Shown: positions 11,886 to 54,196 of the stretch, piece by piece | Position numbering within the stretch: position 1 is the stretch's first letter | Layout: every line of letters starts with the position of its first letter | Assembly: GCF_964204645.1 (NCBI RefSeq) | Contig: NC_134025.1 | Location: 5,084,001 to 5,148,000 of the forward strand | DNA: 64,000 bases | Direction of reading: 5' to 3' | Origin: Tubulanus polymorphus | Taxonomy: Eukaryota; Animalia; Nemertea | Notes under the pieces: model-generated | Database searches by the model: none | Told to the model about the DNA's origin: nothing | Seen by the model: the letters and a program-made list of their open reading frames with translations, nothing else | Translations under genes and position numbers: made by a program

Positions 11886-12052
11886 CCAATCCAATCCCGG
11901 CAGAGCCCTGTCTTAACAACAATCTCACAAATAATTGAACTTACCTTTTGCCCTGGTTGCAAATATTTGTACATTAGCCATGATATTTTTTCATCTAAAA
12001 GTAGCTGATTTTGAAATACAAGTTTTGGGTTGTTCACCACAAGCTTAAGTGA

Positions 12053-17847: not shown

Positions 17848-19069
17848 GTTTCTTGTGAGAAAACGGTTTTTGAGATGTCTCCAATGTTGGATCCCAATAT
17901 GTATTTGGTGCGCGCCAAAAACCGCCGCTTCCAATCATTACATCAGCTTAAAAATTACAGCGTGTTATTGGTTTCGATCAAGATGACGTCATCATTTTCT
18001 AACTGGCCAAGTGCGAACAAATATCGATATCATGTCACTGAATCATTCATCAGGATACAGTTTCATCAGATGCTGTGTGTATAACTGCGAAGATACCGGG
18101 GATAAAAACTTAAGACAGAAACCTGTATGCCTCAGCGAAATCTATCTCTTCCAATGAGTAATAAATTATTCCCATTTCCATAGAACAGCATTTCCAAAAG
18201 GTTTAAATTGTCCGAAGCTTCAGATTAGCCACGCTGTACTTTTCCTACTTTTCCTTGCAATCCCGATGCGGATATAAGAACTCGAAGATCCGAAAATAAT
18301 TTCTTCTTTTTCAACAGGTCCTCTTCAATCATATATCGGTGATATTCGGTTTCCGAAAACCTCATTGCGTCGGAATGAGATCGTTTCTAGAGCACTCATT
18401 TGTCATCGAGAAATAAGCTTGAATGAGATCATTTAGCCAGAGGCAATTGAACCCGTAACCGAATCTGGGCTAAATGATTCCCCGTTAGCAAACAAATGTG
18501 AAGTGTGATAAGCTTTTTGGTAATTGCTAGGCATCGGCGGTCAATTTGAGGAATCGATCGCAGAAAGGGCGGTCGACTTTTTGGAAAATGAATGATGCAT
18601 TTAATACAATACATTCAATAGTTCGAAATGATACTCAAGTGATAAGATTGCCAGAAATTAACCAAATATTGAAATTTTGTGCAATCTTCGTCATTCAAAG
18701 AACTAAAAGATCCGTGGTATCTACGGTGCTATCAAGATCTTTTGTTTTCTAAAACCAGTATTGATGGCGAAGATAAGGCTCGAGTGGAACTAAGCCACAT
18801 GGCTTGTTGCAAGTCTACTAAAGTTCTACTGTTTTAAATTCGACTGCCCGCGGTGCGCAATTCTGTCAGGTAACTGTACGGTGCTGCCACCATGTCACCT
18901 TGCTGCCCGGAGCTGTCCAGACCGCGTCGATGGATGCCCGTATGGTGCTGCCGCCATGCCTTAACGACCAACGTTAGATCCAACAGCAAGATCCACTACT
19001 ACTAGCAACGTTAGTTTGTTTTCCAGTTAAGTCATTGTTTCGAGCGTTTATTATTCTTCAAACACTACA

Positions 19070-23748: not shown

Positions 23749-26700
23749 TTACATTAGACCAGGATTAAGCTGTAGTTCATCTTGATCTCCAGTCTGATCA
23801 TCATCTTCATAATTCAAATCACTGGCCTCCATTAACTTTCTCATCATGCCCATGATCGTTTCGTTTTGCTCAGTGAGGTTCTTCAGTCGAAGGCGCATTT
23901 TTCCAATGTCTTTCTGAATGACTTCTTGTTGTTCTTCGATTCTTTCAATGTCATCCTAAATAATAAATAGGTTAATTTTCATATTACTACAATGACTATT
24001 TTCATATCATGATACATGATGAAAGACATTGGAACATAAATGTTCGATGAGAAGCCACCATAGAGAAAATGTTTGTATTGATTATCTAGTTCTGACACTC
24101 CAGATTCCAACTCACCAGTTCTGGATTAAGAGCCTGAGCTATAGTGGATGCTGATAATGTGCTTTCCCAATTCATAAATTTTCTCACAGCCCCCATTCTT
24201 TTGTTCGGTCGAATCGTTTCGCACTTGCGTATAAACTTCCGTCTCAGAAATTGTGGCAAGATGCCTTCAACTTCAAGAGCCAATTCAACCTAGAGAATAT
24301 TAACACATGAAGTTCATCAATACAGAGATACTGAACTAAAATATTTTTCTAATGTGAAGAAAATAAGAAGCTGTACCTGCATTGCTAATCTCTTAAGGAC
24401 AGCCTGTTCTTGTACAGCTTTGATGTCATCTACAGCCAAACCAACCTACAACATTTAGAATATACTATTAACGCAACCATAAACTCATTAATATTTCAAC
24501 ATTAAGCCAGCTCTTTAAACCACTTAAAATCAACTTGTCAATCATAAATATTACAATATTGAGAAGTAAGATTTTTTGTATACAAATAATTGTATCTGAA
24601 TTATATAAAACAGTTACAACACTGAATGAGCGCTTCATCTGCTGAGATACAGAAAAGAACATCTGATATCACACATAAAATATCTGAATACATGTGTATG
24701 TTGCACGTGACGAGTGATCAGCATTCATTACAGCACGCTTATATTCATTTTGATTCACTAATAATTTCGATTTTGATCCTTCTTTCGAAACTCAATCCAA
24801 TCAAATTGAAGCATTCTGATTTCTCTTGATTACATACACATAAATAAATTGGAGTCATCCCTATATCATCATATACACAATATTGATATTAAAGTCATAT
24901 TTTTCCTTCACCTCCAATTTGTGTATCTTTTGATTTTAAACCCCTTCATCCTAATGTATACGTAATGTATGGATGAACCTAATCATGAATTCTAGGAGCA
25001 TTTATCGATAAAGCTTTAATCAGACGAAAACATCTCGAGGTAAAATCAGAGGATGCTGTTAGGAATTGAATCTATTCGGAAAATCATTAAGACGCATGAT
25101 CCAAAAAAATAACACCCTGGGTCTGACATTACACAGGCAGGAAATTGGCCAAATGGACCTATCTAAATGCAATATTCGGGGGATTAGTGAGGAATCAAAG
25201 ATCTATTATGGGAAGAATGTAGAAAAGAAACAAGTTCTCCTACTCGAATGCAAACATAAATTAAACTAGGTATTCTACATTTTTAGTTAAAACAAAAACA
25301 ACAACGAACATTTTAATGTAGATACATTAATACATATATGAGTAAAGAGTGATTAATTCGAGTGAAACAACAATTGGCAAAGAGTGAAGGACGAAGGACT
25401 CTATAGGACAGTAGTGCGCCGAGATTGTTATAAATTACCAGCAAGTTCATCGTGATGATTGACATCATGATGACAAATGTATAGAATAGGATATAGGACA
25501 TGGTCTCATAGAACACCATTGAGACATAGGTAGCTTCGGATCTCGGGTACATAGTCGTAAACAAATCGTCGTACTCAAATTCACCGATCATCATTACGGT
25601 CGTCTTAATGAGCGAAAAGTCGAATCGTCGAAACGACACCTGAAACATATACCGATCGCAACGCGTTAGTTTCAACAGTTTCAACATTATCTAACCACTA
25701 CTTACCAGTAAATTCATTATAATGATCGACATGACGATGAGGAAGCCAACGAATAATATATACATGGTAATCGGGTAAAAATGGTTTCCCGCGTATGAAC
25801 CATCGAGCGTATGAAACACGCCTTCATATTCCATTTCACCGATCATCATCACCATCGTCTTCACTAATGTTTTACCGAATGAATTAAACGTCACCTGCAA
25901 TATTCGCCCGTCAAACAACACTGCATATACATGTATATAATACAACACATGACTGCACAGACCGATGGAGTAACAATTATCAATGCCGGTATTATACCTT
26001 ATTATCATTTACATTATTCCTTACTTATTAAAGCTCATTATTATTACTATTTATCATTAAATTCTTTTTCAAGGGGCCTGAACGTCCTAGTGATCATACA
26101 GCCTTTATGGCTCTATTCAGGCCCCCAATCATCAAACTTGTGCATTAATACAAGCCCTTTATAATGTCACTGTTGGGAACAATGAAAAACATGGCAATAA
26201 AATGAAGCCATCATGATCAAGAATGGTATTTTCATTGAATATGACTTAGATTGAGCAAATCTGTTCTCTGTAAATGTTGGTGTCAAATGAGCAGTGGCAT
26301 TAACAAAGATAGCGTTATAAAGCCATGGACATTGACTGGTATCGTTTTATAGTCAATTACTGTGTATGAATGATTGAATTACATAATCTTTGAATTAGGC
26401 ATGAATCAAAACCAGCCGAGACCTTAACAATACATTGATAGGCTATCGTGTCAGTGTACAGTCACTTGTTACAATTCACAATTTGTCCGTTTTTTACGAT
26501 GGGACAGATATTATACAAACCTGATTTTGTAACAGCATGTAAAACGCGAATGCGAACGCCAATATGAACAGAACGAACACGACGAAGAAACGAAGAAATG
26601 TACGGAAAACATCCGTAAACATCACCACGTAGATACCAAAACGCGGAACTTTACGAATGAATAACACAAGATCGATCCACGCTAAAAATATACTCGCTGC

Positions 26701-29700
26701 TCCAACTTGCCACTGCCATGCCTAATGAGAGAAAACTACATATCAGAACAATGTTTTCCCGAAGGTGACTTTTAGAATATAGTTGAAATGCTAAATAAAC
26801 TACTAGCTCTGGAGACTTTTATATTTTTCATTATAATTGTGGGATATTCTACATACTATCTTCACAACAAGGATGTAATGTTTCATCAATGGTTATACAT
26901 ATCAGAACATCGGCATGGTCGTTCAAATGACCAGTAAATGGAGGAATTTCTTACCTCTCTGATGCCGATTTCACTTTGACAATCAGTAAAGTCCATCACT
27001 AGTAAAATTGCAGTGACATACATCACCCATTCAATGAAATTCTCCATTGTGAGGTAATGCAGTTTTGACTGATATATTTGGAACAGCTGAAAAATAATTG
27101 AAGACGCTCATGTACAAACTGCTATGTTATTCTTCAAAATCATAACCCTAAATTTTACATACAAAGAATTAGCAATCAAAGTTCGTATACGTTTTTGAGA
27201 AGAGCAAAATCTGAATAAATGTCAATCGTATTGAAATATTTACCTCTCGCAGTAGATTGAAAGCCGTCAATGAAATTATGACCCATTTCGATATTTTTAA
27301 GATCAACTTCCCAGTTTCATCCAACAATTCAGTGTAACCATTTGCCCTAACATCCTCACAACCAGTACAATTCCTATAGTAAGAGATAAAAGATACTTAA
27401 CTTGTAGCCATCGGATTGAAAGGATTTAGAACAATGCGAAATTATTCAAAGATTTTACGTACATTGTAGATTTGCAGTAGGCAAATGGAGGAAATGCGAC
27501 CATTGTATACGTGGTAAGAAACGTCAAAAATATGACATAAAAACTGAGATTCCCGTAGTAAACATAACGACCAAAGCTATTCCACTTGTGACGCAATAGT
27601 GAAGTAACCAACGGATGCATCAGTAAATCTTCACGATTGGACTGCACCTGAATAAAAATGCACCTGATATTAAGTAACATGTATATTTCTAACGAGTACC
27701 GGGCATCTTTTCCTGATCATTTACCATTATCATCAATGGATGATTTTTCTTAATAAGAGTTGAGTCCGCTGAATATGGTTTAACGTCTTCTTTCAGACGA
27801 AATTCTTCATCATAGATATCGCCTGAATAAAAAAATCAATATCACTTACTTACTAATTAACATTTACAAATACAAATTTACAAATCACAAAACCAGGATC
27901 CTTTATGCAAACCTGGGTCAGTTCCTGATTCGCTTTGTGGAATTTCCTTCCAGTATGAATACATGTCATCCAGAAATTCATAGTTGAATGTGATTTTGTA
28001 CTTCGGATGTTCAGCATTCATTGAATTAGATGACGTACACTTCATGAAAACTTTCTCAGCCACATCTGAAATCAGGTCGATCAAGTGTTACACCGATCCA
28101 CTTGAGAACTGGGTTTTTCTCAAACAAGACTATGAAAAACAAGTGTATGAATTATAAATACCTGGCATCTTCTTGATGAGTTTCCTCATGGGAGTATTCC
28201 TCCTACCAGAGGAGGGATCTGAAGTTTCATTTCGTAATGCTTCCTCCCAGCGGTCACTTTCACAAATAACAGTAGCTACATCCCTGAAATAAAAAATGTC
28301 ACCAGTAAAGAATATGACTTTGATGTCGATTTTCATGTGTGAGTGCTCCCCACGGGAATGTGGTAAAACCTATTACCTGAAGTTATTGTCAATAGCTAAG
28401 TCGAGACAATTGTTACCATCACTATCACGCTGCTCCACTGAAGCGTTCCATGCGAGCAACAATTTAACCATATCAGCATGACCTCTAGATGATGCCAAAT
28501 GAAGGGGTGTGGTCTATAATAACAAAACACAGAATCATTTTCATTATGATTTAACACTGAGTATTTAGTGATTTTAGCCAAGTAATGCGTTGTACATGCG
28601 GTTACACCCAAAATATACTTTAGCTACAACTTAAGTGAAACAGAAATCACGGAATCTTGAAGTAATCAAACCATGCATGAATCAAAAACGTATAATAAAC
28701 AGTTCTTGTCAGAGAAAAGGATTGAACTATGGTATCTAATAGAAAATTATCAACACAGTTTATATTCTAAGGGAAACTTTGAAGATGAACACACGTTTTT
28801 CTCACTTTCATAGAGTAATTCATGTTAGATTACATTACTATATCAATATACAGCTGGTCATAGTCAAAATTAGAGACACACTACAAGTGTGTTTTTACTC
28901 AAATACATGTACTTCTGAAATATATGCTACTCAAATGTGGTAATTAATGCTAATTAACTTTCAAATTGCATACATAGAGAATGGGTTAAAATTATACAGC
29001 TCAAAGAACACGATCAAATAAATAATTCTACAGAGATAAATCAACATTTCCATTCGAGATCATTCTTCGATCAGATAGGGCACCAATCAGTGGTTCAATT
29101 TGAAATTGGAAGCAAATGATTTCTAAAGCACGATGGAAATGTTATAACATAAGAAACTCACCATACACGAGGGACAACAATAGATTTTACAAATAGATCT
29201 TTTATACATTCTACCGATACCTTAGACTTATCCATAGGGTCGACAGGACTGTCATTATCAAGTAAACGACGAGCTGTCTTAACCCAACCTTTTGCGGCTG
29301 CGCAATCGAGTGGTGTCCACAGATTACAATTCCTGTCAGCAAGATTATAGCAAAGTTAAATAGCGCTAACTACGTAATAAGATATCAAAGCACAGATACT
29401 GTCACCAAAAGAGAAGATTGTGAATAAGAATCCTCCCAACTCGGCACTCATGATGTTGGGTGTCTAATTTTCAGCTCCCTTTGAAAGTGTTTACCGGTAG
29501 TTTTAACTACATGTTAGCCTTTTCGACACCAAACACCTCTAACACCATTTACAGTATGAATATAATAACGGTATCACAGTCACCACAACTACCTGGTACG
29601 TATATATTGACAGGCAAATAGTTTAGATTTGATGCTTCTCGGATATATGATTATAGATAGAATCCTTTGAAAGTGATACTATACAGAAATCCATACATAA

Positions 29701-32700
29701 TTTAGGCAAATGATTGCCATCTTGGTGAAAAGAATATAATATATGCCCAAATACGAAACAAAAGTTAAGACTACCTTCGATTTATCAAGAGGGTCAACGG
29801 GACAGTCGTGGTTCAATAATGCTTTAGCAACGTTCATTGAACCATTGGCAGCTGCACAATCCAATGGAGTCCATAAAGAACAATTCCTAAGCAAAAGTTG
29901 TATCACTGAATATCATTGTTATTCTACCAGATTTTAACAAAATCGATTCCTATATAAATGATGTGTACCTGACCTATAGAAACATTTAAGGGCCTGATTT
30001 TACGAATTCACTCAGTGGAATATATATTCATATTAAACATCTTATAAGATGAACTTTTATATGACTAAAGTTGCAGTGACTTTTCTTCATGGGGGTGACA
30101 AAGAATACCACGAAATATCCCATATCTGTGCTAAGTGTGTAATAATCTTTTGTGCAAATAAATGTTCAAATCAATCAAAGTGTATATGTTCTAAATATGT
30201 TAGTGGCATTTAATTGTTACTTTGCTTCGATTAGTTCAATCAACAAGCCGCGCTACCAACAGCAGTCAACATTAAATCATAAACCAATCGATCAGATTGA
30301 TAGTTCAATAAATCAATCAGTTATTGGTGGATATTGTGTTAATTGGTTAAATGTAAATGTATAATGGTGTAGTACGCGTTGTATACCTTGGATTTGTCTA
30401 GAGGATCAACAGGACAGTCGTTGTCCAGTAAAACCTGCGCGCATTTCAGTGACCCATTAGCCGCTGAACAATCAAGCGGGGTCCACAAACTGCAGTTCCT
30501 GGTAGCAACGAAAGTGATTTTTGTGTATAATTACATTGTTCAATAAACATACCCATGCTATCAAGATGTATTTTCGTACATGATACTAAGTTCAATTCGT
30601 CATTTATTCTCCTCAAGTGGTCGAGGTAGCAAAGTGATCGAATCATTAGCCGCGGTGATTCAATACATATTCCATATGAGCTGGAAATAATTCAGGCCAT
30701 GCTGATCACGGCGATACTCTACATACCTGGCTTCAATATCAGCTCCCATTTCTATCAGTTCAGCCGCGACTTTAGCATGACCCGCTAGAGCAGCAAGATG
30801 AAGAGCGGTATTCGAATCTTCATCTTCATCATTGACAATCATTTTATTTCTTCTCACCAACTCCCTTACAACTCTAAAACATCAAGCAACTCATTAAATA
30901 TTTCAACTCCTAAAGACTACAAAAATACGATGATATTGATATTTTTTTGGATAAATTCAATAGTAACTCATTATGTAAACTTACTTTGTTCGGCCATATT
31001 TAGCACCGAGATGAAGTGGAGTTTGCTCTTCCTCATTTTTAGCATCCAGCTGAGCTCCATGATCGAGCAGGCTCTAAATACGTGGATATGTTTAAATCAG
31101 TTGTATTTACAAGTGTTTTGGACATAATAGTGCGCTTTGAATTGAGTGGAAAATGCCAAAATCTACCTTAACTATGGCTAGATAACCTTTCATGGCTGCG
31201 ATATGTAGAGGAGAATTATCATATCGATCGCTAGAGTCAATCAAACCATACTGAGTTGCTTTTGGATGATTTGCTAGAACCTAAAATATAACAAAAGAGT
31301 CTAAATTACTCTTTTCTGTGGCATAGAAATCTTATACAAGTATGTACACATAAAACCAGCATAGTCTAGAATTCTAACTGAAATTACCTCTAGAGCCTCA
31401 ATGTTGTCTTCCTCAGCGGCCCAGTAAAGAGCAGTTTTATCGTTTTTGTCCATAGCTCTAATATCTGCACCACGTTTCAGTAGGGCTTGTTCCGTTTCAG
31501 CATGACCATAACAAGCAGCGATTAGAAGTGGAGTGAAATTGTCTCGATCTCTTCGTTCAATCTTAGCACCCCTACGAAAAAACCAAAACTTTTCTACTAA
31601 TGTTTCTGAGTTATTTTACTAACTGGCGTACACGATGTGTACTTGGTTCAACATAAACTTACTTGTCCAATAAGTACTCAACAACCTTTGCGTGGTTATA
31701 CTTGGCTGCCTGATGTATTGGTGCGGCCTGTTGTTGATTGAGGGCATCAATTCTAGGATTATGATCGCAAAGAAGTTTCACAATTTCCAAATCTCCTGAC
31801 TGCGCTGCTAAGTGTAAAGCAGTGCTGTAGTTTTTCCTATGTCCATTTACATCAGCGCCTAGAAATTATGATACAGTCACAATTTAAGATTAAATCGACA
31901 TAGAGATATTAAAGATTTTCAATTACCGGGTAAGTTTTACCTTTCTCAATCAAAAGTCTAGCAACTTCATAGTTTCCATTTTCAACAGCTAAATGTAAAG
32001 GTGAACTTTGATCGATATCTTGGTCTGTCACCATCTAATGATAAAAGAGATGAGTTAAAATATTCAAATATCAATAGGTATGATGGCAAAATATATCAAC
32101 AATTTATTGGATTGTCTTAAAATCCTTCTTGAATATATTTCTGAGAATATCAATAACGATCTTTAAGTCTCTTACTTGTGATATTGTCACCCAACCATCA
32201 AGCTTTTCACCAGCATCAAACAACAATTTACACATTTCGACATTTCCTTCCATAGCGGCGAGATGAAGAGGGGTTGATAGCTCTTCATCAACGCAGCGTA
32301 ATTTAGTACCTGCTTCTATAAGCATACGACAAATTTCTAGATGATTGTGGGTAGCCACGAGATGCAATGCTGTCATATTCGTCTTGTCTACAGCCTATAA
32401 ATATGATTCAACAATTTCAAAAGTGCATTTCATCAAATAAGGACATGATTTCAACTGTAAAATTTTCATTTCAAATTGTGTCACGGTAGGGTAAGTTTTT
32501 GGCTCTATATTCATTCATAATTGATTCACCCATTCCGAGTCTACTGGGATTATGGATACGTTTAGAAAATTGAATAATTGTTCATTTTTTGACTCGTGAT
32601 ATCTAAAACAGACAATGCTTTACCTCTATCTGAATTTCAGGACAAAGCAGCAAATCGCGGGCAGCCACTTCATTTCCCCTCATGGCGCTGTAATGAAGGG

Positions 32701-35700
32701 GTGTCAAACCATAGATATCCCGACAATTCGGATCAGATCCATGTGATATGAGGTATTCAATGACGCTAGGCTGCTCGTCGACATCCTTTTCAGCAGTTCC
32801 CTCTTCATTTTCATTCGGAGTGACATCTCCGTTAGGCTAGATAAATTGGAAAGAATTCATAAAACCGAAACTGCAAGAATGGGTTAAATTGAAGTGACTA
32901 CATGCATTCGGGTGATGTTTACAACATTAATCAATAGTACCGGCCATTACTGAGGAAAATTGGGGAAAATTTGATCTAGAAATTGATTGACACCTTGAAG
33001 ATTATCTAATCAACTGGTTATTAGAAATTGACAACGGTATAACTCTATATTCACTCTCATAAAGGTACTATTTATGCAGTATACAGTGACGTGTTTTTGT
33101 GACCATTCAATATCAGTGACAATGATATATTACGATCAATATTTGGAAAACAGCATCGCGATGCAAAAACCGTATCACGAAATAACTTCATCAATGTTCA
33201 GCTAAAACAGCACTAGTGTTTGCTCACTGAGCAGCTGAATATAGGGTAGATTGTATCCCATAAGTGATAAGATCAGTTCTATGTATTGCCAACTTTCAAG
33301 CAGGGTTCTTTTTACAGGGGTTAGTCTGACTGGTTTCTATTTTTTACCAATTTAATCTCCGGCACTCTGAGGAAAGAATGTTATATCAACAAGTGGCTGA
33401 TTCATTGAGATTTCTCATCCATGTGATATGAAATAATATCCTGGGTGGATATAGATGATAATTATTGATATAACTAGATTGCAATGACTGGGTGTGGTTG
33501 AATTGTGCATGTTGACTGTTTTAAGTTGATCTATACAAATATGAAGTACCTAGTACTCAAACATTTCACAGCTGAAGGTATTATATCTCAGTATACAAGC
33601 TCCCACGTGAATCTGATACAATTGTGAATACACATAGAATGGTACATCAGCAGCAAAGCCAGAGAGGGCTATCGGTTTGAACTAGCAAATCAAGCTTGGT
33701 ACATGTATTTCAAAGAACAGCAAAAGAAAAGTGACAAAGAACAGAAATATTGATTCCTATAAATAAGTTTAGGATACAGCCGGAGGATTCCCACTAGACG
33801 CATGAGTTAGATTTCTTGCGAAACCTTTTATGTGCAGATTATATGAACAGACATAATACATTATGAATATAGCCATGTATATTCTGTTTCCACGGCAAGT
33901 TTAAAGTGGAAACTCACAAGTTTAATATAGGCCCTAGAATTCTTCTAACATCTCTAGTGAGAATCTGCATTAAAATTTGAAGTTTAACAATTCAAATTGT
34001 GAAGCAACATTTAGAGCAATTCACACACATTTCAAACTCAAAGAATTCCACTGAAATTTCTGATGCCTCTCAGTAAAAGTGTTTCTATAGTTACTGTAAA
34101 TATCCAATTTCAAGTCATTGATTAGAATCACCTATGCACATATGACAGGAATGAAACTATAATTCTATTTCAGCTCGAAGCGATGAAGACATCGAAATTA
34201 CGAAACACGAATGACCATGTTTAAAACTGAATTTTTTTGAAACAGAAACCTTGACAGATGCTAAGTGGAAAAGCAAAATCAATGTGTGCTATACATGAGG
34301 GTCAAAATATTATCCATACTTGTGCAATTCCACTGTCCGTACTATCAGCAATCTGAAAACATAATTCATTTGTTCCATGCAAAATACGGTTCATAAAAAA
34401 TTCTCAAACATTACAGCCAATGAAATATACACTATCATGTCCTCATTATCAATTTATTATCCCGAATATACCAGAAGGGGTGAAATTATTGGCTGAACTA
34501 CAAACTCATCTTAGAAATTGTGTGTCTCATTGATTTCTTCTGGATCTGTCCGAAGGATTATATTGCTGGATTAAAGATTACACGATAGGGGCAAACGCAC
34601 CTTCACCAAATTACTGCAGATGATTTTTCAAATTTTATATTAGAAATAAGACAAACATCCAAGAATGTAAGTATATAAGCTATATACGCGAGGGCAATCA
34701 TAATCATTGATGTCATTTCATTTCTATCTGACCAGTTTACATTCTTTGACGCACAGATATATAGATGAGTGCTATGACTCATTACAGTACGTTCACAAAT
34801 AAATAAGAGGTTTTGAACTGACGAGTACTATGACTTATTAGAGTACGTTTACGGTGTATTAGAAACTAATTCGAGAAGTTTCGTAGGTGTATTGATTAAT
34901 ATCTGGTAAACGTTTGAAATATTATGAAATTAACTCAAAACCATTTCACTTACGTTCATACAATAGCATGTAATTGATTGTGAGAGATGAAATTATATCA
35001 ATAAACACAATTTCAGTATTATAATAAACAAATCAGCAAAGAACTTAAAGGAATTAATAGTTAATGTAATCAAGTAAAAAAAACAATACCAGTAGATTGG
35101 TTTGGTTTCAAGAAAAGGTTTAAGCATTACAAAGCAAGGCAATCTTTCCTCACTGGAAATAAATCTGAAAACTCCCACTGCAATTGATTTATTGTTAAGA
35201 TGTTGTGTAATTTTCAGGGGCAAGGAGAGCAACCAAAATTCTTATGAAACCGAACCCAACATGGCAGTAAGAAAACAAGACATACACACACATACATATA
35301 TCATACATACTGGAGCATATAAGGTACTACTTGTAGACCTGTGGTGTAACTTCTGCAATAGATTTGACAATAACACAAATACGTAAAATATGTATGTGAT
35401 GACCATACATTTCCATAAGGTGAAAAACTAGACCCTTGGCAATACAGTTATTCACTATGCAATTAGTATACAAACGTCAGGTTTTAGTGTTTTAGTTTCT
35501 ATGCAGAAAATGGTTGAATTGCTCACGAAAATAGTAAGTAATACTCTTATCCAAACAAATTTACGAATTACGAATCATCATTTTTGCGACTATTTCAGAG
35601 TTTGAATTTCAACAAAGAGCAACTAAAACATGATCTTTTTTATCAGCTTCAGTGAAAATCCATATGACAAATTGACAAAATCAGCAGCAATTACAGTACA

Positions 35701-36738
35701 CGAACATAGAATACAAGAATGTGAGGTCGTAACTAATCTTACCTTCGAGTCGGGGATGTTTTCATCGACGGACCTAGATCGGTTGATTTTTTGTTTTTTA
35801 TATCGAGCTCCGTAATGAAGAGGAGTCGCGTCATCTTCACCGCGATCGTTTACATCTAAATGAATTAAAAACGTAGTTCACGATTACAGAATATTTGTAA
35901 GAAAATACCGAATATTCTGCCAGGTTTTTAAGGATGATTCACTTACTCGCTCCTCTTTCAACCAGAAGTTTAACAATGAGATAATGATCGTAACGAGCCG
36001 CGTAATGAAGGGCGCTTAGTTTATTTTCATCATGCCAATTAATCCTTTTCTTGAGCTGACCCTTCGACATTTGATCGAGAAGTCGGCGTAATGAGTCAAC
36101 ATTGCCATCTCTAGCGCACTGAAATGAATTTTTTTATATCGGTTTAGAATAGGCCTAATTTGAAATCGGAAATTCAGCTCCAAGCAAGCTCATGAAAGTG
36201 TAATAAGGTTAATTGAGTAAATAAGTGGGTAAGTATACTAATATATGAGTTATTCACTCAATTAACCTGTTCTTCTCCGTTTATACCCCTGTTTTCAGTC
36301 AATATCTCACACCTGATGATGATCTCTAGGGTGAGATCGAAACGTCTTGTATTTTATATATTTTAGATTTTCTGAATTCGATTTTAAAATCATCTTAATT
36401 TGTGGGTTTTTATCTTATTATCCATTCACCACGTTAGAGAGTGGTTATTGTTCTAAGTATAATTGATATTTTACCTGATGTAGGGTTAATCCAGCAATGG
36501 ATTCAGTGCTTTCAACTCTCTTTAATCCAGGAGATGATACTAAAGTAGTTAATTCTGTTGCACCGGGTAGGGCACCCGCGATATGACGCTGTTCATTATC
36601 ATCGTCCGCGGGGTCAACAAACCCAACCGATCCAGCTACACGTGACATGTCGTATTGTCGAGTTTTACCTCCAAGGAATTTTGAAAATCGGAAGTTCAGC
36701 TCCACCGTATTTCTGGAATCTAAGATATCATCAGCCAT
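23749..36738 (-). CDS. TRPA1: TRPA1-family ankyrin-repeat cation channel, multi-exon, with mutually exclusive exon clusters
   Basis: Many ankyrin exons (SALHYAA, TPLHY, TALHLAA), linker LLMHPLVTSLLRHKW, S4-S5 LFIRKVPRFGIYVVMF, pore MMIGExEY, S6/TRP-like MNLLVGLAVDDIKAVQEQAVLKRLAMQ, C-terminal coiled coil; first coding exon 36475-36738, last 23749-23955; exact TRPA subclade unresolved. Confidence 0.92.
25439..25639 (-). CDS. TRPA alternative pore+S6 exon P2 (201 nt)
   Basis: TTTCAG|VSFRRFDFSLIKTTVMMIGEFEYDDLF...IMMSIITMNLL|GTAATT, phase 0-0. Confidence 0.9.
25706..25894 (-). CDS. TRPA alternative pore+S6 exon P1 (189 nt)
   Basis: TTGCAG|VTFNSFGKTLVKTMVMMIGEMEYEGVF...IVMSIIIMNLL|GTAAGT, phase 0-0. 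Confidence 0.9.
29221..29332 (-). CDS. TRPA alternative ankyrin exon C (112 nt)
   Basis: CAG|G-NCNLWTPLDCAAAKGWVKTARRLLDNDSPVDPMDKSK|GTATCG. Confidence 0.9.
29775..29886 (-). CDS. TRPA alternative ankyrin exon B (112 nt)
   Basis: TAG|G-NCSLWTPLDCAAANGSMNVAKALLNHDCPVDPLDKSK|GTAGTC. Confidence 0.9.
30387..30498 (-). CDS. TRPA alternative ankyrin exon A (112 nt)
   Basis: CAG|G-NCSLWTPLDCSAANGSLKCAQVLLDNDCPVDPLDKSK|GTATAC. Confidence 0.9.
34320..34352 (-). CDS. Candidate 33-nt TRPA microexon (IADSTDSGIAQ)
   Basis: GTTTTCAG acceptor, GTATGG donor, phase 0-0 like the flanking exons, no stop. Confidence 0.55.
36309..36350 (+). ncRNA. Minimal type I hammerhead-like motif, probably a Penelope-like element remnant
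   Basis: CTGATGA-T-GATCTC-TAGGGT-GAGATC-GAAA-CG-TC; stem II perfect, stem I partly mismatched. Confidence 0.5.
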
Positions 36739-39064: not shown

Positions 39065-43200
<4,136 letters not shown>

Positions 43201-44227
43201 ATTGATTGAGATTATAATGATTTCTTATCCAAATCTGCAAAAGAAAATATTGATTTTTAATATGCAAACTCCAGGGAGCCTAATGAATATCTAAGCAATT
43301 AGGCTCAAAATTATCTTTTTATTTGAGCCAGTGCATTCAATTCTTAATTCGAAATGCCCAAATAGTTGCTATCAGTATTAGGCCTATGTAGCCTGCTGAT
43401 ACTAGATCCTGGCCCCTGCTCTCCAAATCAAATTCCATTTAAAAGTCTTAGCAAGACTAAAGTGTCCAAATCAGACTAACCAGGCGATCACCCAGTGGCA
43501 GCAGTAGCCCTGACTTGTACTGACACTGACACCGTACACATGTCATATATATACAAAACATACACAATAAATTAATTTAAATTTGACTTGACTAATGATT
43601 GGTTATGTAATGTACACGAAATAACCCGTTTGAAAAGGGACAGACTCTGAATTTAAAGTTAACAGGAGGTAAGATGTGATATAGATGGTATGCCTGAATA
43701 GTATGCATAACGTGTATTTCGGCTCAGAAACCTTTAGATTTGTATTTTTGAAACAGGTTAAACTGCAGCTATGCAGCATGTCCCGTGAGAGGACCTGGGG
43801 CCTGTGACGGGACAAGGATGTCCCGTCACAGGTCCCGATGGAAAATGAAAACTTTGCATTTCGTAGACGAAATGTCGAAAGAAACTGCACTCCATTGGTT
43901 ACTATATACACTCAAAATAATGTTAAGAACATGTTAATAATCGAAATTTGTTCGTAATTTTATTATTTCAGATCAATGATATCATCAAATCGAAACATTA
44001 AATGTAATAATGAAGATCGGATCAAGAGAAGACAGAACCACAGCTATCGAAATTTCAATTTTTAGTGTATAGACTGACTCATACTATCGAAAATAAAGTG
44101 AATGTATCTTGACAATTTTGGTGCCAATGGTGTTAGTAACCGTTTGTTAAGCGTTACACTGCAAACAAAAGTAAAAGTGGAGGGGGCAACTTAATGGCCC
44201 TAGATCACTCTCGAGAGAGAATTCAAA

Positions 44228-45251
44228 GTGAGGGACCCGATTCAACACACTGTCCCGTGAGAAGACCCGATTCAACTTACTGTCCCGTGAGAGGACCCGA
44301 TTTCAAATACTGTCCCGTGAGAGGACCCGATTCAACACACTGTCCCGTGAGAGGGCCCGATTTTAAATACTGTCCCGTGGGAGGACTCGATTCAACACAC
44401 TGTCCCGTGAGAGGACCTGATTCAACACACTGTCCCGTGAGAGGACCCGATTTCAAATAATGTCCCGCGAGAGGGCCCGATTCAACACACTGTCCCGTGA
44501 GAGGACCCGATTTTAAATACTGTCCCGTGAGAGGACCCGGTTCAACACACTGTTCCGTGAGAGGGCCCGATTTTAAATACTGTCCCGTGAGAGGATCCGA
44601 TTTTGAATACTGTCCCGTGATAGGGCCCGGTTTCAAATAATGTCCCGTGAGAGGGCCCGATTCAACTCACTGTCCCGTGAGAGGGCCCGATTTTAAATAC
44701 TGTCCCGTGAGAGGACCCGATTTTGAATACTGTCCCGTGAGAGGGCCCAGTTTCAAATAATGTCCCGTGAGAGGGCCCGATTCAACACACTGTCCCGTGA
44801 GAGGACCCGATTTTAAATACTGTCCCGCGAAGGAACCCGATTTTAAATACTGTCCCGCGAGAGGGCCCGATTCAACACACTGTCCCGTGAGAGGACCCGG
44901 TTTCAAATAATGTCCCGCGAGAGGGCCCGTATCAACACACTGTCCCGTGAGAGGACCCGATTTTAAATACTGTCCCGTGAGAAGACCCGAATCAACTTGC
45001 TGTCCCGTGAGAGGGCCCGGTTTCAAATAATGTCCCGTGAGAGGGCCCGGTTTCAAATAATGTCCCGTGAGAGGGCCCGATTCAACACACTGTCCCGTGA
45101 GAGGACCCGATTTCTAATACTGTCCCGTGAGAGGACCCGAATCAACTTGCTGTCCCATGAGAGGACCCGGTTTCAAATAATGTCCCGTGAGAGGACCCGA
45201 TTCAACACACTGTCCCGTGAGAGGACCCGATTCAACACACTGTCCCGTGAG
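44228..45251 (+). repeat. Left 30-bp tandem array (~34 units), TGTCCCGTGAGAGGACCCGA plus variable 10-mer
   Basis: Exact 30-nt period visible from 44251 to 45251. Confidence 0.97.
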
Positions 45252-45682
45252 CCAAAAGTTGTTGAATGAGTATCTTTATGACAAATAGTGAATATTGTTG
45301 GAATATTTCTCTATTTTGATTTATAGGTGTCCGGCGAACGACAGGACCAAGACGATGACGTGGGCGATGATATTTCAAACGTGAGTCAAAAGTTGTTGAA
45401 TAAATATCTTTATGACAAATAGTGAATACTGGTGGAATATTTCTCTATTTTGATTTATAGGTATCCGGCGAACGACAGGACCAAGACGACGACGTGGACG
45501 ATGATATTTCAAACGTGAGTCAAAAGTTGTTGAACGAAAAGTTGTTGAATAAATATCTTTATGACAAATAGTGAATATTGTTGGAATATTTCTCTATTTT
45601 GATTTATAGGTGTCCGGCGAACGACAGGACCAAGACGATGACGTGGGCGATGATATTTCAAACGTGAGCCAAAAGTTGTTGC
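45247..45682 (+). repeat. Three tandem copies of a ~135-150-bp intron plus 54-nt exon unit
   Basis: Exons 45327-45380, 45461-45514, 45610-45663 each encode VSGERQDQDDDV(G/D)DDISN between TTTATAG and GTGAG. Confidence 0.9.
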
Positions 45683-47941
45683 ATGAAAACTTCAATGTAC
45701 AATATGAAAAAATGATCAAATATTGAAAAAAAATATATTTTACTGTATGAAATTACAGGTGTCCGCAGAAGACGGCTGGCTTAGATTGTATGACGACGTC
45801 TTTGATATACAAAATCTCACCGAGGCAGAACAGATTAAAATCAGTATGAAGTTATCACTCAAAGAGTCACATCTCCGTCAGAGTGCAGAGAAAAGGCTTC
45901 AATCTCTAGTTTCCGAATCCAATCTGAATATTGTGTCGGTCGCGGATGACGGAAGCTGCTTTTTTTGCAGCTGTTGTCGAACAATTGAGGCGAGAAAACG
46001 TTGACATAACAGCACATGAGCTACGATTAATGGCTGTTTCATACCTTTCTGAAAATAGATATTGCGCTGTAAGTAAATTAAAAACCCATTGATATATCAA
46101 GACAGACTACAATAAATATTATATACACATATTATGGTTTGCTTCGCTGGATGGGGCTGATAAGGCCGACTTTCTGGAGTCTCATCTGACATGGCCATTA
46201 TATCTTAATAAAATGAGACAAAGAACCACCTGGGCCGATGCTTTAGTTGTCCGTGCCACAGCTGACTGTTAAGGGAGACCAATGGTACTATATACCAGTT
46301 CAGAGCAGTCAAACATCAATATGATAGATCCTGTCGAATGTAAAAATGCTGAACCCATCTTACTAGGGCATATTCAAGATATTCACTACGTTGCCCTAGT
46401 AAAAAGGAGCTATATCCCATGACGACGCGTGTCAGTCGAGAGTGTCAGAGGGTACCCTTGCGGCCTAACCCACGGAAGACGGTAAGTTGATAGTATATGC
46501 CACCCCTTCTGACTATTTGGCAAAAATAATACAGCCATCAGAAGCCTTGTTCATGTCAGCTAAGGGTTAATTAATTGAATTTCATAGCGTCAAAGTGACA
46601 GTTACCTCTGAGAACCGCAGAAAAAAAGAAGACGGGTTGTCGATAAAGGAATCTACTGCGTTTGCAAGAAACCAGATGATGGAAGGTAAAGCTTAATTAT
46701 ATCATATAAGATCAGGCTGTTGTTTTAAGATTCAGTCGTCATTGTCGAAAAAATCTTTTACCTTCACTTTCACTTTCACTTACCTTCACTTTCAAAATTT
46801 TCTGCATTTGCATTTTGGGAAGTATTTGCAATGCGATGAATGTAGTGGGTGGTTCCATCCGAAATGTATTGGTCTGAACGAAGATACTGTGGAGAAAATT
46901 GACTATAGATGCGAAACGTGTTTTTAGGTAAGCGATGAACTAAAAAAATATTTTGATCAAATAAGCTATGCCTATATCCTTGCTATGCTATCCTTTTATA
47001 CAATGTGATTGCATTCTTTTTATATAGGTACCTAAACGATTCATTAAGAGTCAGGTATGGAATCCGATACATAATGCATACGAAACTCTTGCCATTTTCC
47101 ACTAGAAAGCAATGAATCAAATGTTTTTCTTTTCGCAGCTTGGCGCGGTTGAATATCACGTTTCTCGTATAATTAATGCCGAGATAAAAGACAAGAGGTA
47201 AATATTGTACCTTAGTAGAAATCTCGCCAGTTTGTTGAATTTTTCAAACTTTTGTTGATAATATACAATCTTTGGTTTCAGAAGGCCGGAATTCAGGAGA
47301 CATTTGGACTTGATTAACAAAGACCATGAAAGAGCCGAAAAAGAACTGAAAGGATATGGCTATGGGCTTTTAACTGATGAGGTAAGCATTGATAACAGAA
47401 AATATGAAATGCGTACAAATAAATGAGCTTTCTTTCGATCATCGTAATATTCAATATTTTAAAGGGCCATGCATATCTCTATAGTGTAATGAAATCATAC
47501 GTCAGCCCTACCTTTGCGGACAAATCGTAAGTATATACATGAATCAGACGTGAAGTTTTTTTACTATATTTCGAAATGATAATCAATTCATTTCAATTAC
47601 AGGAAACCATATTCAACTCGCTACATGACCCTCCGACAACATCATTCTAAAATGCTGAATTCAGTTTTTAAAGAAGGAAAGACGTAAGTTCATTCTCATC
47701 TTCTATTGCTAATTTCTTAAAAGAATTTCATCCATGTTATATTCATTGTATTAAAATATTTTTCAGGTCAGCAGTAACGTATGTTAATGACGTTTTGCTT
47801 AAAGAGGCCATTTGTTTATTGGTGTCAACCTACCGAAATATCACATACAACGAGGCTGATATTCTTGGAAGAAGAACAGAGGCCAAAAAACTAAAAGATG
47901 TACAACGACTAATGTCCAAATACTTCTTGCCAGATTATTGA
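45327..47941 (+). pseudogene. 5'-truncated spliced transposon gene: acidic repeats, UIM-like helix, OTU cysteine protease, PHD finger, unknown C-terminal domain
   Basis: VADDGSCFF(frameshift in T7 at 45960-45966)AAVVEQL...HELRLMAVSYL; YLNKMRQRTTWAD..(TAA 46270-46272)..ILLGHIQDIHYVAL; IYCVCKKPDDG / LQCDECSGWFHPKCIGL...YRCETC; further small GT-AG exons ending in TGA at 47939-47941. Confidence 0.82.
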
Positions 47942-48864
47942 AGAGTGAAGCAGTTTTCGATTCTTAAATGGGAGCTGTTGTAGATTGGTTATCCCGTAAT
48001 GATTGTATTCTATGGAATAAGTTTTCTTGTTGCGATGAATTTTTGGATTGCTAGAGATGGTCTTTGCTGAATTTTGGTAATGGTTTTAATAGGAACCAGA
48101 TTGTGACATGGATGTTTGAATTGTTGAAATGCTGTCCAGTCTTCTAATAGATGTGTGTAGTATATAGCCTATAGAAGTTCTTTGCAATGATGTTTCAGAA
48201 GTTATGAATGATGGTTGAAAGATTCCAGCCGGGGCCGAGATGGTATTGTAAATTGTTGTTAATTAGTGGATCGTTTTATCTGCCTGGTTTGTTGTCGATG
48301 TCTTATGCTGTGTACTACTTCGTGTTAAATATTATTTTTGTATTGTGTCTTAACAGACAAGGGCGTTTTCTGTCATCCAATATGAAATGATAATTTTTGG
48401 TTCAAATTATAATACATCTATCCGGAATTGGGAAATATTGCTGAAGAGTAAAAGGGGAAATATGAAAGAATTGATGATAACCTTTTTTACCGTGTAAAGT
48501 AATAATTAATAATTAAATGATAAGTAATAATTTAGTTTGGCGACAAAGATTTAGTAATCTAAAATGCTAAATTGATTTCGAATTCCAACGTATGTTGTTT
48601 ATGTTCAAATATGAATAATATAGTCTTCGAATGTAATATGGTTTACAGATTTTGATAAATAAATAACTGAACATAATTTCACATATATACGATTTGTTTT
48701 ATGTTTTAAGGGGACATAGCCAATTTGGCTTTTAGTACGTACATCCAGCCATCATTGTACGCATATTGTTGAAATAATAATTTCTTGTTGTAATTTTTAT
48801 ATATGGCAAAAATGCATTATCATTATGAGCATGGGACTCAACATTGACAAAGTGGACAATTTTA

Positions 48865-50150
48865 GTCCTCTCACGGGACAGTGTGTTGAACCGAGTCCTC
48901 TCACGTGACATTCTTTGAAACCAGGTCCTCTCACGGAACAGTAAGTTGATTCGGGTCCTCTCACGGGACAGTGTGTTGAATCGGGTCCTCTCACGGGACA
49001 GTATGTTGAATCGGGTCCTCTCACGGGACATTATTTAAAAGCGGGCCCTCTCACGGGACAGTGTGTTGAATCGGGTCCTCTCACGGGACAGAGTGTTGAA
49101 TCGGGCCCTCTCACGTGACATTATTTGAAACCAGGTCCTCTCACGGGACAGTGTGTTGAACCGAGTCCTCTCACGTGACATTCTTTGAAACCAGGTCCTC
49201 TCACGGGACAGTAAGTTGATTCGGGTCCTCTCACGTGACAGTGTGTTGAATCGGGTCCTCTCACGGGACAGTATGTTGAATCGGGTCCTCTCACGGGACA
49301 GTATTTAAAATAGGGTCCACTTACGGGACAGTGTGTTGAATCGGGTCCTCTCACGGGACAGTGTGTTGAACCGGGTCCTCTCACGGGACAGTATTTAAAA
49401 TCGGGTTCCTTCGCGGGACAGTATTTAAAATAGGGTCCTCTCACGGGACAGTGTGTTGATTCGGGTCCTCTCACGGGACAGTGTGTTGAATCGGGTCCTC
49501 TCACGGGACAGTATTTAAAATAGGGTCCTCTAACGGGACAGTATTTAAAATCGGGTCCTCTCACGGGACAGTGTGTTGAACCGGGTCCTCTCACGTGACA
49601 TTATTTGAAACCAGGTCCTCTCACGGAACAGTAAGTTGATCCGGGTCCTCTCACGGGACATTATTTGAAACCAGGTCCTCTCACGGGACAGTGTGTTGAA
49701 TCGGGTCCTCTCACGGGACAGTATTTAAAATCGGGTTCCTTCACGGGACAGTATTTAAAATAGGGTCGTCTAACGGGACAGTATTCAAAATCGGGTCCTC
49801 TCACGGAACAGTGTGTTTAATCGGGTCCTCTCACGTGACATTATTTGAAACCAGGTCCTCTCACGGAACAGTAAGTTGATCCGGGTCCTCTCACGGGACA
49901 TTATTTGAAACCAGGTCCTCTCACGGGACAGTGTGTTGAATCGGGTCCTCTCACGGGACAGTATTTAAAATCGGGTTCCTTCGCGGGACAGTATTTAAAA
50001 TAGGGTCGTCTAACGGGACAGTATTCAAAATCGGGTCCTCTCACGGAACAGTGTGTTTAATCGGGTCCTCTCACGGGACAGTATTTAAAATCGGCTCCTC
50101 TCACGGGACATTGTGTTGAATCGGGACCTCTCACGGGACGGTAACTTGAA
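48865..50150 (-). repeat. Right 30-bp tandem array (~43 units), inverted relative to the left array
   Basis: TCGGGTCCTCTCACGGGACA recurs every 30 nt; the TCACGGGAC(A/G) core runs from 48871 to 50140. Confidence 0.97.
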
Positions 50151-53100
50151 TCGCGGGTTCCGTTGTAAAATCCTGCGTGAAAAACGTGCATTCATATCCC
50201 CTATTGTCCCCCTGGCCCTGCAGTAAATTAGAATTTTTCGGTAGGCCCTCATGTATTTATAAATGAAATCAAAATGGAAAATGTAATAATTACAATCGAT
50301 AGTTGAATTTATTTATTCATAATCGTTATAGGCAGAATACATAAGAATATATAAGGGACTCGAAACCGCTAGCATTGGAATCGACGTTTCATGTAAGAAT
50401 TCTACATTTGTCCCGTGAGAGGACCCATGTCCCGTCACAGGCCCGGGTCCTCTCACGGGACGCTGCAGTTAAACTCATATGGAATTTTTGTATTAACTTC
50501 ACAACTTACTTCCGGGTTTCTAGAAAATACAGATACGCTGGCCAAAATGATCAAAAATGTGAGAGTTATTTCAGAATTAAGTCTCTTGTGACCACCCTAT
50601 ATTTAATGTCAGGACTAAAACACATTAGAAAATTGTTAAAGTTACTGATGATTTAGAGGGATTTACTACTAGGACTACATTTCCTTGTTTTTTCATTTTC
50701 TAGTAACCGACATGGTTGGTACAAAGTACGGTTCCGGACTGACTGCGGCCCGGCCTGTTGGTGACGAGACACTGACCGGGCGGGCCGGGTTTTATACAGA
50801 AGCTCACTTACACCATTCAGTCGGATTTATCTCATGATGTCCAACCACCACCACCATTAATTAGACAACTGATGGAGTTTTGAAGAAAATCATATGTAAT
50901 GCCCACATGAATGATGCTAAGCTCTAACCTCACAAACGTACAGCAAGCGACAATTAAATCGGAAGAATTTTATTCATATTTTCCCCTTTGTGAATCAAAT
51001 ATATCTTTTATTCATATATATGTATTATATACATCGCTAAATTACTGGTGACAATGATTTAAGTACAAGTGCACAATAAAATGCACTTGATTAGTACTGC
51101 TTTCAGTAAAATCTACCAAAAACCACTTAAATTCATCAAGAAGGAAAATTAATTCTATGAAGGTTATGCCCCTACAATTACATGTATCTTCAAGCTCAGT
51201 TTCAGTTATAAGAATACAATACGTTTGTAAAGTATTTTAGGTCATGGAGTTATTTCATCTTCCTGAGGATCCTTACCCCTAATCCTAGCCCTATCCACGG
51301 ACATATAAACTCTAGTTCTTATGTCCATGCTCTATCATAGAACAGCCTCATAGAACCACGGCCTATATGCACACTTTGGTAGTGACATTAACAGAGGAAC
51401 ATTAAGTGTTCATGTAAGTGATCTCTGGCCAATATTAATCTATTGTTGAAAAGCATTTTAGAGACTTCCATCTTTGTCATAAATATAGCTAATATTTAGC
51501 TAATACAAACTGATATCGAAGGTTTACCCTGTAAAGACCCATATCGCACTCAATACATAAGTATCATTTTGACAATATACCATTACTGGTAATCAAAAGT
51601 TGGATCAAATTCTTTTTTACACACCCTCAAAAACATTTACAACATTTTCACTGAAACTCAAACGATTGTCAGAGCCCCAAAATGTTTTATTACATAAATT
51701 ACATATTATTTCTTAAGGGGCTATTTGATACCATCCGAATAATAATTCGAAATCAGTAGCCTCATTCATAGAGCAGTGGCGTTGGAAGTGCAGCGACTGC
51801 GGGGGCGAAAGCCGCGGCAATAATTTACTGAATGGCGTTTTTTTTCCTTTGAATATCACGTTTTTGAAGAAATTAAGTAAATTCGTCGTGGCAATATTTA
51901 GAACCTGTTCAAAATCTGCATTAAGCCGCAGCAATCAAAAATTGCTTCCAACGCGCCTATAGAGTACAATCTACTAGAAAAAAACAACCTAGTTTCTATA
52001 TAGAGTATGGCGAGACTAGGATAGGAGAATCGTCAAAAGTAAATTAGTTTGAATATTGGTATATGTGGATTGATAGAAGATTTGTATTAATATCATCAAT
52101 GAATGAAAGTGGTATAGCATTCTATAAAAGAAATATGGGATTTCAATTGTTTTTATGCATCAAGTTAGGTTCAGTCAAATGATTCTTAGCGATAAAAATG
52201 GTGTAGACATATCAAAATACCAGGACGGATGTTGAAATGGACTGATATATCTCATAGATTGATTGAAGAAGTACTACATTATGACAATCAGAAAACAACA
52301 TGAATCATTTGAGTTAATCATATTTTGCTAAGGAAAGTAGTGTAGTAACCACCTCTGTTCGTTTTTTGTAAAATTCACATTACCAAAGTATTTTAGAGTA
52401 GATTGTTGGACTATTACCACTAACCATAGACAATAATACCGGGTATATATTTGGGTTCATATCTTACATGTATTGTAAATTCTAATAGTTGTAGAGGATT
52501 GTGGGAAGGCTGCACGTAGATAACTATATCTTCTGCATTGTTCAAGTAATTACCTATTTTGAGTATTCTAGCTACAAATAACATACAATCTAACTGTCCC
52601 TGCTCCACAAAATATATCATCACATGCCACACAATACTGAATAGATATTCCTATGTGGGCTAAACAATCAAACCCATATAATTTGAATCAAATCATTTGG
52701 GCACCAATCCAAATTTTAGTGTGACAGATGAAAATAAATTTTCCACAAGTTAAAACACACCGAGAATCCACAAGACATTTCGTGGGTCTCAACCAATCAA
52801 TTCAATGTGGGCTCAACTGTACAAACGATCCTGAATCACAACAATGCATATGCGACTAAAATAATCTGTAGCATTAGAATAAGCAAAACAAAATTATTAT
52901 GACATTTTTACAGTGATGAAAGAATTTTAAGCAAATTTATCCATCAATGTTGGGGACAGCCAAATACCATATTATCAATCACAGGCTCTTAGAATAGATT
53001 TGTTCATAGCTGATGACCTCTGATGAAATACAGCACACTGTTTGGGTTTAATCATCCATGCTGAAGTCATTGGCGATAATTTTCGAGAAAAGAACATGAG

Positions 53101-54196
53101 GAATACAATAAAAGGCACAGCAACTAGAGATATGTTCTCGAGCAGTTGATATATTGAAATATTCATAACCACATTTCAAAAGCTACCTACTTCTAAAGAT
53201 GGAGCTTGGAATCGAATGAGGCTTATACATGACATTCATCTGCCAACGCAAAAATTAATTAATCATAATAATAAAGATAGCTTTAAATGTAAATATTTCC
53301 TGACTATGCAAACTTTATACAACATAAGATATAAAACATTGAAAATACATGAGACAAGACTTGAAATCATTTACAATGACTAGCATGCAATAAAACATAA
53401 ACAAAGAACATAGTTCTAGGATGCATCCTTCATGTTCAATGTAGTTAAACAAAAACAAATATCAACTTATAAAGCAAGGGTTTAAGAAATATTTTCCATT
53501 CAGGCTGCATGGAAGGCATTAGCTAATTTTCAATAAACCCATGTTTTATACCACCAGTAACTGTAGCGTAGATATTACGCTTCTTTTAGAGCATTTTAGA
53601 ATGGATAGACTGCTGTAACTGTTAAAACGCTTTCTTCCCAAATGAAAAAAGATAAATGAATACTTCTGAAATCTAAATCTGACCAACACAACTGACTGTT
53701 CATTATGCTTTCGACAAACCTATCTTGACATAAACATCATAATCACAGCTAAAATTATTTTCAAATGAAAAGCACCAGTGACCTCTTCACATGGCACAGT
53801 GAGCAATGACTAGCCAAAATAAAAGTATAATGTGACTTCTAATGCCCACCACAAGCTCAAGACAACGAAAAAATCTATGCAATTATAGGCAGATTTCCGA
53901 AATTGTCATTGATTTCATGATTCAACACCAACAGCGGTTCTAGATCTAAATTCCACCACAGTATATACAATATCATGAGTAGCTTTCGTAAGCCTATTGC
54001 ACCTGGTGATCAGAACAGCAGCATGTATATACACACATACAGACACTGTTAACCGATCTTCTAAACTGTTTTTATATAAGCGCTAATGATAACGACAGTT
54101 CACCATAACGAGATACACTTTCCGTATCTCAAGAAATACAGATCTTCTTCCATTCATTACACTTGAATCGCAGTATCCAGGAACAACTCTTGTATT

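Follow-up and report, generated by a model that had tools for sequence, protein, structure and literature searches.

A probable array-bearing transposon at the locus

The window analyzed here is a stretch of 64,000 nucleotides of DNA from Tubulanus polymorphus. An element of 6.7 kb is located between the genes for a RhoGAP and a 5'-nucleotidase, which are both encoded on the minus strand. It extends from position 43750 to about 50484 of the window, its boundaries being set from reads of several sequencing runs. The element carries two inverted arrays of a 30-bp unit and a broken gene encoding OTU-like and PHD domains (Table 1). It is present in many copies and likely arose by deletion from a cut-and-paste DNA transposon, being non-autonomous itself and dependent on an intact partner that would mobilize it in trans.

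Reads of four runs were aligned to the repeat-free left end of the element (42400-44225). In run X5, whose sample and study are distinct from those of X1-X4, read depth averaged 4.4 in 22 bins of the flank and 121.7 in 7 bins of the element, a ratio of 27.7 that corresponds to about 28 copies. For 1934 Mb of reads and a genome of 358 Mb (PMC8468679) one would expect a depth of 5.4x, with which the flank value is consistent. With about 28 copies, a sharp left end and representatives on three chromosomes, these are dispersed copies with defined ends, and the initial annotation of this locus, made from the letters of the sequence, was right to propose a foldback-like multicopy transposon with inverted modular arrays. 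The family appears to have amplified recently, and the insertion in the window appears to be young.

Table 1. Positions in the window of the parts of the element and of the likely target-site duplication (TSD).
Feature	Position	Strand	Remarks
Likely TSD, left copy, TTTTT	43745..43749		ATTTTT, starting at 43744, with a right end at 50483
Left terminal motif GAAACAG, non-inverted	43750..43756	+	43750 is the first base common to other copies
Subterminal inverted repeat, 13 bp, left copy	43757..43769	+	
Left motif cluster	43778..43836	+	three array-type motifs (forward, reverse, forward); 18-bp stem
Left unique spacer	43837..44230		multicopy by read depth, family-specific
Left array of 30-bp units	44231..45251	+	33 full cores at 44252-45227 and one truncated core at 45242
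CGTGAG microhomology, last array unit to intron	45246..45251	+	inferred deletion junction
Three tandem 54-nt acidic mini-exons and introns	45327..45663	+	45327-45380, 45461-45514, 45610-45663; AG/GT sites
OTU-like cysteine protease, two exons	45759..46481	+	frameshift in T run near 45960-45966; stop at 46270
PHD finger, two exons	46588..46927	+	46588-46685, 46823-46927; Pfam PHD E 4.1e-9; stop at 46925 where the paralogous model runs on
C-terminal helical domain, five exons	47028..47941	+	weakly like PF20886 (PWWP3A C-terminal); related to Mytilus Ulp1-domain protein
Right array of 30-bp units	48864..50153	-	43 cores at 48864-50139
Right unique spacer	50154..50407		no match to left spacer
Right motif cluster	50408..50461	-	three motifs in mixed orientation; 17-bp stem
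Subterminal inverted repeat, 13 bp, right copy	50462..50474	-	one base off the family reads
Right terminal motif TCATATGGAA, non-inverted, 9-10 bp	50475..50484	+	last base 50483 or 50484
Likely TSD, right copy	50485..50489		

Ends of the element and target-site duplication

At the left end, the flanks of other copies depart from the window before 43750 (51 reads) and before 43749 (20 reads) in X5, and contigs of X1 and X3 depart there too. The boundary is sharp, the flanks being unrelated between copies. Loose ends are described here from the rows listed, 23 of 63 overall and 6 of them from X5; among the listed X5 rows, none falls at 43751-43764. Reads from the right end of other copies cross-map to the left end, with loose ends before 43780 (86 in X5, and one X2 contig), and match the window through ...CATATG(G/A)AA, that is, to 50483-50484. 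The terminal motifs GAAACAG and TCATATGGAA are not complementary.

The initial annotation had read the termini as CTGCAG flanked by a duplicated TTAAA, or as TGCAG flanked by a duplicated GTTAAAC. These strings are present as given; they are neither ends nor duplications, lying 7-17 bp inside the element. The right-end family reads carry GTTTAAC where the copy in the window has GTTAAAC, and the proposed duplication is in fact the 13-bp subterminal inverted repeat, which looks direct because of one private base change in this copy. CTGCAG and TGCAG are likewise excluded as termini, since the reads of other copies continue 13-14 bp further out, to 43750/43749. The Galileo-like, quasi-palindromic TSD of 7 bp was thus a string internal to the element and private to this copy, and with both the terminus and the TSD readings refuted that idea falls. 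The array motif was correctly seen near the ends, where it forms three-copy clusters on each side, although the true ends are not inverted and the inverted repeat is subterminal.

At the ends defined by the reads, the duplication measures 5-6 bp and 7 bp at most. A chance match at fixed ends has a probability of 0.0016 for a 5-mer and 0.0005 for a 6-mer. A flank contig of X1 ends exactly at 43750, and an extra depth of ~40 fits contigs starting at 43721, as expected of two alleles branching there; a contig of X2 diverges from the window sequence after 43750. The insertion at this locus therefore appears to be polymorphic. We also tried an 8-bp repeat, TTTGTATT, as the TSD and rejected it: three of its Ts would have to belong to the element, yet are missing from other copies, and it would put the branch at 43746-43747, whereas the observed geometry, with its branch at 43750, caps the duplication at 7 bp. 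The TTTGTATT repeat is probably a tandem already present in the target.

The inverted 30-bp arrays

In both arrays a 16-bp core recurs at a spacing of exactly 30 bp at every step. There are 77 motifs in the arrays, 34 on the left and 43 on the right in opposite orientation, and six more in the terminal clusters, which bears out the kilobase arrays of one motif initially described. The arms are 81-85% complementary across about 1 kb, so that the element has the long inverted arms made of tandem repeats that characterize foldback elements. Conservation across 75 full units is 94% at positions 1-20 and 75% at the last 10, with zero indels; the conserved 20-bp core contains GTCC-N7-GGAC. It is plausible, judging by the sequence, that the arrays present protein-binding sites. 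The helical phasing suggested for these sites holds only loosely: a 30-bp unit makes 2.86 turns at 10.5 bp per turn, a drift of ~51 degrees per unit, and would be in phase only near 10.0 bp per turn. The sites would therefore spiral around the helix unless the DNA is wrapped.

The two arrays expanded separately, because identity between the arms is 80-85% at each of 40 offsets, leaving no colinear register, and because one unit variant differs in frequency between the arrays (13 of 33 units on the left vs 2 of 42 on the right, P 0.0003). The right array holds a recent 240-bp duplication that is 99.6% identical. The spacers that set the arrays back from the ends (about 400 bp on the left and about 255 bp on the right) are unrelated, as noted in the initial annotation: their local alignment score is 18, against a mean of 19.7 for shuffled sequences, and 83% of 300 shuffles score at least as high. 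The reads also contain shortened forms of the element. In one, which lacks the arrays, the left spacer is joined at 44085 to a variant right end (seen in 16 reads of X5 and in contigs of X2 and X3); other internally deleted forms have joints 43805-43841 and 43814-44095.

A broken gene between the arrays

The region between the arrays contains a spliced and broken gene, which the initial annotation had missed. It is encoded on the plus strand, its splice sites are canonical and its 5' part is missing. The left array breaks off in the middle of a unit and runs into intron sequence across a common 6-bp CGTGAG; this sharing between array unit and intron at the junction points to a microhomology deletion. 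The element thus appears to be a deletion derivative that keeps the 3' part of a gene, and its interior is not empty.

The last exon is 100% identical to an NCBI gene model of Tubulanus polymorphus. A C-terminal stretch is invariant (161 columns) across three NCBI models, whose contigs measure 32.1, 21.6 and 27.4 Mb, and near-identical gene remnants stand on two further chromosomes, the C-terminal part agreeing letter for letter. One model, P0003, has its beginning within the left spacer (93% to 43838-43924), from which it is spliced directly to the mini-exons, a structure which indicates that the deleted form itself has probably spread elsewhere. The predicted structure of P0002 has a mean predicted local distance difference test score of 46, and a search of PDB sequences with P0002 returned nothing under E 0.3.

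Relatives and search for an intact partner

When 1.84 billion representatives were scanned by HMMER for the C-terminal domain, three matched: the locus's own model, P0004 and P0005. P0004, an ankyrin-repeat protein, was discarded as spurious. The P0005 cluster (P0005/P0006) comprises Mytilus proteins, annotated as sentrin-specific protease, in which a Ulp1 protease precedes the same C-terminal domain at 27-28% identity; to judge from the sequences, the Mytilus Ulp1 protein may belong to a related mussel transposon. The C-terminal stretch of the Mytilus proteins matches Pfam RTC4-like weakly, and not PF20886, and we therefore treat the link to PWWP3A as a lead only.

Searches for a long relative bearing a transposase recovered the locus's own model in one case (1 of 57 candidates; 0 of 2159; 0 of 13), weak negatives that extend to proteins of at most 2000 amino acids. 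No related locus was found among 25 candidate stretches in metagenome contigs or 116 in viral contigs, and pattern scans for related loci gave no match. Our search for an account of this family covered the literature, not Repbase or Dfam, and found none; two papers that name the species alongside transposable elements are about genome size and neuropeptides. The initial annotation had been unable to match the termini and TSD to a superfamily with confidence, and no matching family emerged from the searches run.

Other features of the window

The neighboring 5'-nucleotidase gene (NT5C2-like) occupies 39546-43200 on the minus strand with a likely start codon at 43200, placing the element 550 bp upstream. 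A GC-rich stretch at 50727-50790, 240 bp beyond the right end of the element, could by its sequence be the promoter or a non-coding first exon of the nucleotidase gene, severed by the insertion.

A second mobile element, resembling a miniature inverted-repeat transposable element, lies at 11432-11885. Its 454 bp include 91-bp arms that are 99% complementary, with 10-bp repeats inside, and it is flanked by an exact 9-bp duplication, CCAATCCAA, at 11423-11431 and 11886-11894. It resembles a small Mutator or foldback element with a canonical TSD, and its sequence is unrelated to that of the array element.

An iodothyronine deiodinase-like gene is present at 17026-17934 on the minus strand (Pfam E 7.7e-13); an in-frame TGA at 17440-17442, between two open frames, likely encodes selenocysteine. 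A pair of paralogous exons at 2210-2701 and 9336-9731, also on the minus strand, presumably belongs to two-pore potassium channel genes. Minus-strand exons at about 25313-36738, with a short duplicated coding stretch at 25559-25861, are taken by us to encode an ankyrin/TRPA-type channel.

Proposed mechanism of transposition

In the mechanism that we propose, an intact partner, absent from the searches, would supply a DDE transposase in trans. The deleted 5' part of the gene would have encoded the core of the transposase, and OTU and PHD would be accessory domains at its C-terminus, comparable to those of Ginger1 and some Mutator-like elements. In each unit the transposase would bind the conserved core of 20 bp. 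The two ends would be paired through the terminal clusters and 13-bp repeats, and the arrays would offer secondary loading sites, a role suggested for the repeats of Galileo (PMC3573991, PMC4079207). Cleavage would then occur outside the subterminal repeat at a fixed distance specific to each end, 7 bp on the left and 9-10 bp on the right, and a staggered cut of 5-6 bp would yield the duplication. Considering the domain types, the OTU-PHD module may read chromatin and remove ubiquitin, helping the element.

Interpretation and comparison with known transposons

Non-autonomous DNA transposons are classed by their ends and by the length of their TSD. The combination found here fits none of the transposon groups checked. 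The enzyme that moves it is most likely a DDE transposase of the Mutator/Dada neighborhood, but we assign the element to no superfamily. Several points weigh against our interpretation of the element as a trans-mobilized deletion derivative with a 5-6-bp duplication. The protein and locus searches run found no transposase or autonomous copy. The right end was located only through cross-mapping reads, and the duplication is known from one site only, at which the 8-11-bp TSD of Mutator-like elements (MULEs; Tm1, Phantom, Rehavkus) is absent. X1 may be the window's own source sample, in which case it adds no independent support; the empty allele at this locus is suggested only indirectly, by contig geometry. 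The existence of the short form in the reads means that the arrays may be dispensable for movement. As for the domains, the OTU match (Pfam E 0.0096) and the PF20886 matches (E 0.006-0.04) fall short of the Pfam cut-offs; the OTU-like protease also matches the OTUD5 structure 3pfy (E 0.0014).

A bolder version of this interpretation, which we regard as fairly improbable, is that the element represents an undescribed and still active animal cut-and-paste lineage with two different, non-inverted ends and 5-6-bp duplications. Such a lineage would load its transposase on the inverted 30-bp arrays, each of kilobase length, and its deubiquitinase-PHD module would end in a domain like that of PWWP3A. 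If this were true, the lineage would have relatives in mussels, and the vertebrate repair factor PWWP3A could have acquired its C-terminal domain from this mobile source.

The element could instead be an ordinary Mutator-like foldback of the Tm1/Phantom/Rehavkus type, its short duplication being an aberrant or eroded TSD of 8-10 bp, which we consider possible though unlikely. A G at the 5' end, typical of Mutator-like elements, speaks for this explanation. So do the OTU, PHD and minisatellites that occur in MULE groups (PMC6446971), as well as Tm1 of root-knot nematodes, a Mutator/Foldback element with asymmetric 7-bp ends outside an inverted repeat, variable tandem repeats and deletion derivatives, in which 8 of 53 complete elements lack a TSD of 8-10 bp (PMC3169594). 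The other 45 Tm1 elements have such a TSD (PMC3169594) and the general TSD of MULEs is 8-11 bp (PMC6446971), however, and no duplication of this length fits the ends defined by the reads; the only 8-bp repeat is TTTGTATT, with its Ts that other copies lack. We estimate it to be rather unlikely that the element is related to Dada or to the KDZ group, which comprises Kyakuja, Dileera and Zisupton, as a member lacking target specificity; these have no or weak terminal inverted repeats (TIRs), many introns and TSDs of 6-8 bp. Dada shares with the element the absence of TIRs, short subterminal inverted repeats (7-9 bp in Dada), many introns and internally deleted derivatives, and its TSD is 6-7 bp (PMC3706591), as compared with 5 or 6 bp here depending on one base at the right end; the 6-bp reading ATTTTT is allowed at this site. 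TIRs are absent from Kyakuja, too, and its TSD is 7 bp long (PMC12730594). Yet Dada targets small nuclear RNA and transfer RNA genes and ends in a CCHC finger that all its transposases carry (PMC3706591), whereas the site is not a small RNA gene, 40000-54000 of the window (14,001 bases) containing no Rfam match, and the gene remnant lacks the C-terminal CCHC finger, a difference that bears on Dada only if the transposase gene ended with this remnant. A term search of the Dada paper found no arrays, OTU or PHD (PMC3706591). As to KDZ, the ends are not CA..TG with a 7-bp TSD, as in Kyakuja, and there is no 8-bp TSD, as in Zisupton and Dileera.

Two mechanisms other than cut-and-paste were weighed. 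If the element were a rolling-circle, non-autonomous Helentron (HLE2), the T runs that form both flanks at this locus would be its T|T target rather than a duplication. The subterminal repeats of HLE2 elements measure 11-18 bp, and these elements also contain tandem repeats internally, carry OTU as cargo and are flanked by T-rich sequence (PMC4067079, PMC11417382). We find this very improbable: in the two boundary groups of X5, 51 of 71 reads lack a T just ahead of the element, and GCA is the last triplet of the flank in an X3 contig; the repeats stand 7 and 9-10 bp from the ends, compared with 2-4 and 38-60 bp in HLE2; both stems are inside the repeats, with no stem-loop outside the 3' repeat; and the X1 branch at 43750 fits a duplication and not a plain T|T insertion. 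Least probable of all is a Crypton-type element moved through a circle by a tyrosine recombinase, with 5-6-bp terminal direct repeats. Cryptons lack TIRs, have direct repeats of 4-6 bp and sometimes contain Ulp1, and many CryptonS termini are TATGG (PMC3212892), a string found at the right end of the element. TATGG is absent at the left end, however, and CryptonS have been described from oomycetes and a diatom. Moreover, the left flanks differ between copies, so that a fixed direct repeat is probably not carried, which again counts against this mechanism.

Returning to the trans-mobilized deletion derivative, its young family of ~28 copies in a sequenced genome offers an inexpensive route to the partner enzyme, be it a Mutator with a short TSD, an untargeted Dada/KDZ relative or a new lineage, and the forms with and without arrays allow a direct test of the long-held view that the repeats of foldback elements provide additional sites for transposase binding. 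The TIRs of more than 30 bp ending in TAYGG..CCRTA that accompany the 6-bp TSD in the fungal families of IS3EU have no counterpart here, as the element's ends are not inverted. hAT5 and hAT6 have TSDs of 5 and 6 bp, and hAT elements have true TIRs. In Galileo, FB and Tetris, as in the element, long inverted arms are internally repetitive and the repeats expand independently; unlike it, they have true TIRs, with a TSD of 7 bp in Galileo and 8-10 bp in Tetris (PMC3573991, PMC4079207), and true TIRs with a 7-bp TSD, as in the Galileo/P group, are not found here. Ginger1 has OTU or Ulp1, and PHD, as interchangeable C-terminal parts, which may be compared with Ulp1 in the mussel relative and OTU-PHD here; its TGT termini, TIRs of 40-270 bp and 4-bp CCGG/CCGT TSD are all absent from the element (PMC2836005).

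Among Mutator-like elements, Rehavkus resembles the element in its PHD finger and in a minisatellite that precedes the 3' TIR, and differs from it by a 9-bp TSD and true TIRs; MuDR-6_HM has OTU and no TIR (PMC6446971). Closest in build is Tm1, which likewise combines short, asymmetric and non-inverted end motifs outside a subterminal inverted repeat with inverted tandem repeats in unequal number and with non-autonomous derivatives (PMC3169594). Tm1 has a TSD of 8-10 bp, 14-bp units beside its ends and a known MULE transposase (PMC3169594), whereas the element described here has a duplication of 5-6 bp, kilobase arrays of 30-bp units set back from the ends by unrelated spacers of 250-400 bp, and an OTU-PHD cargo.

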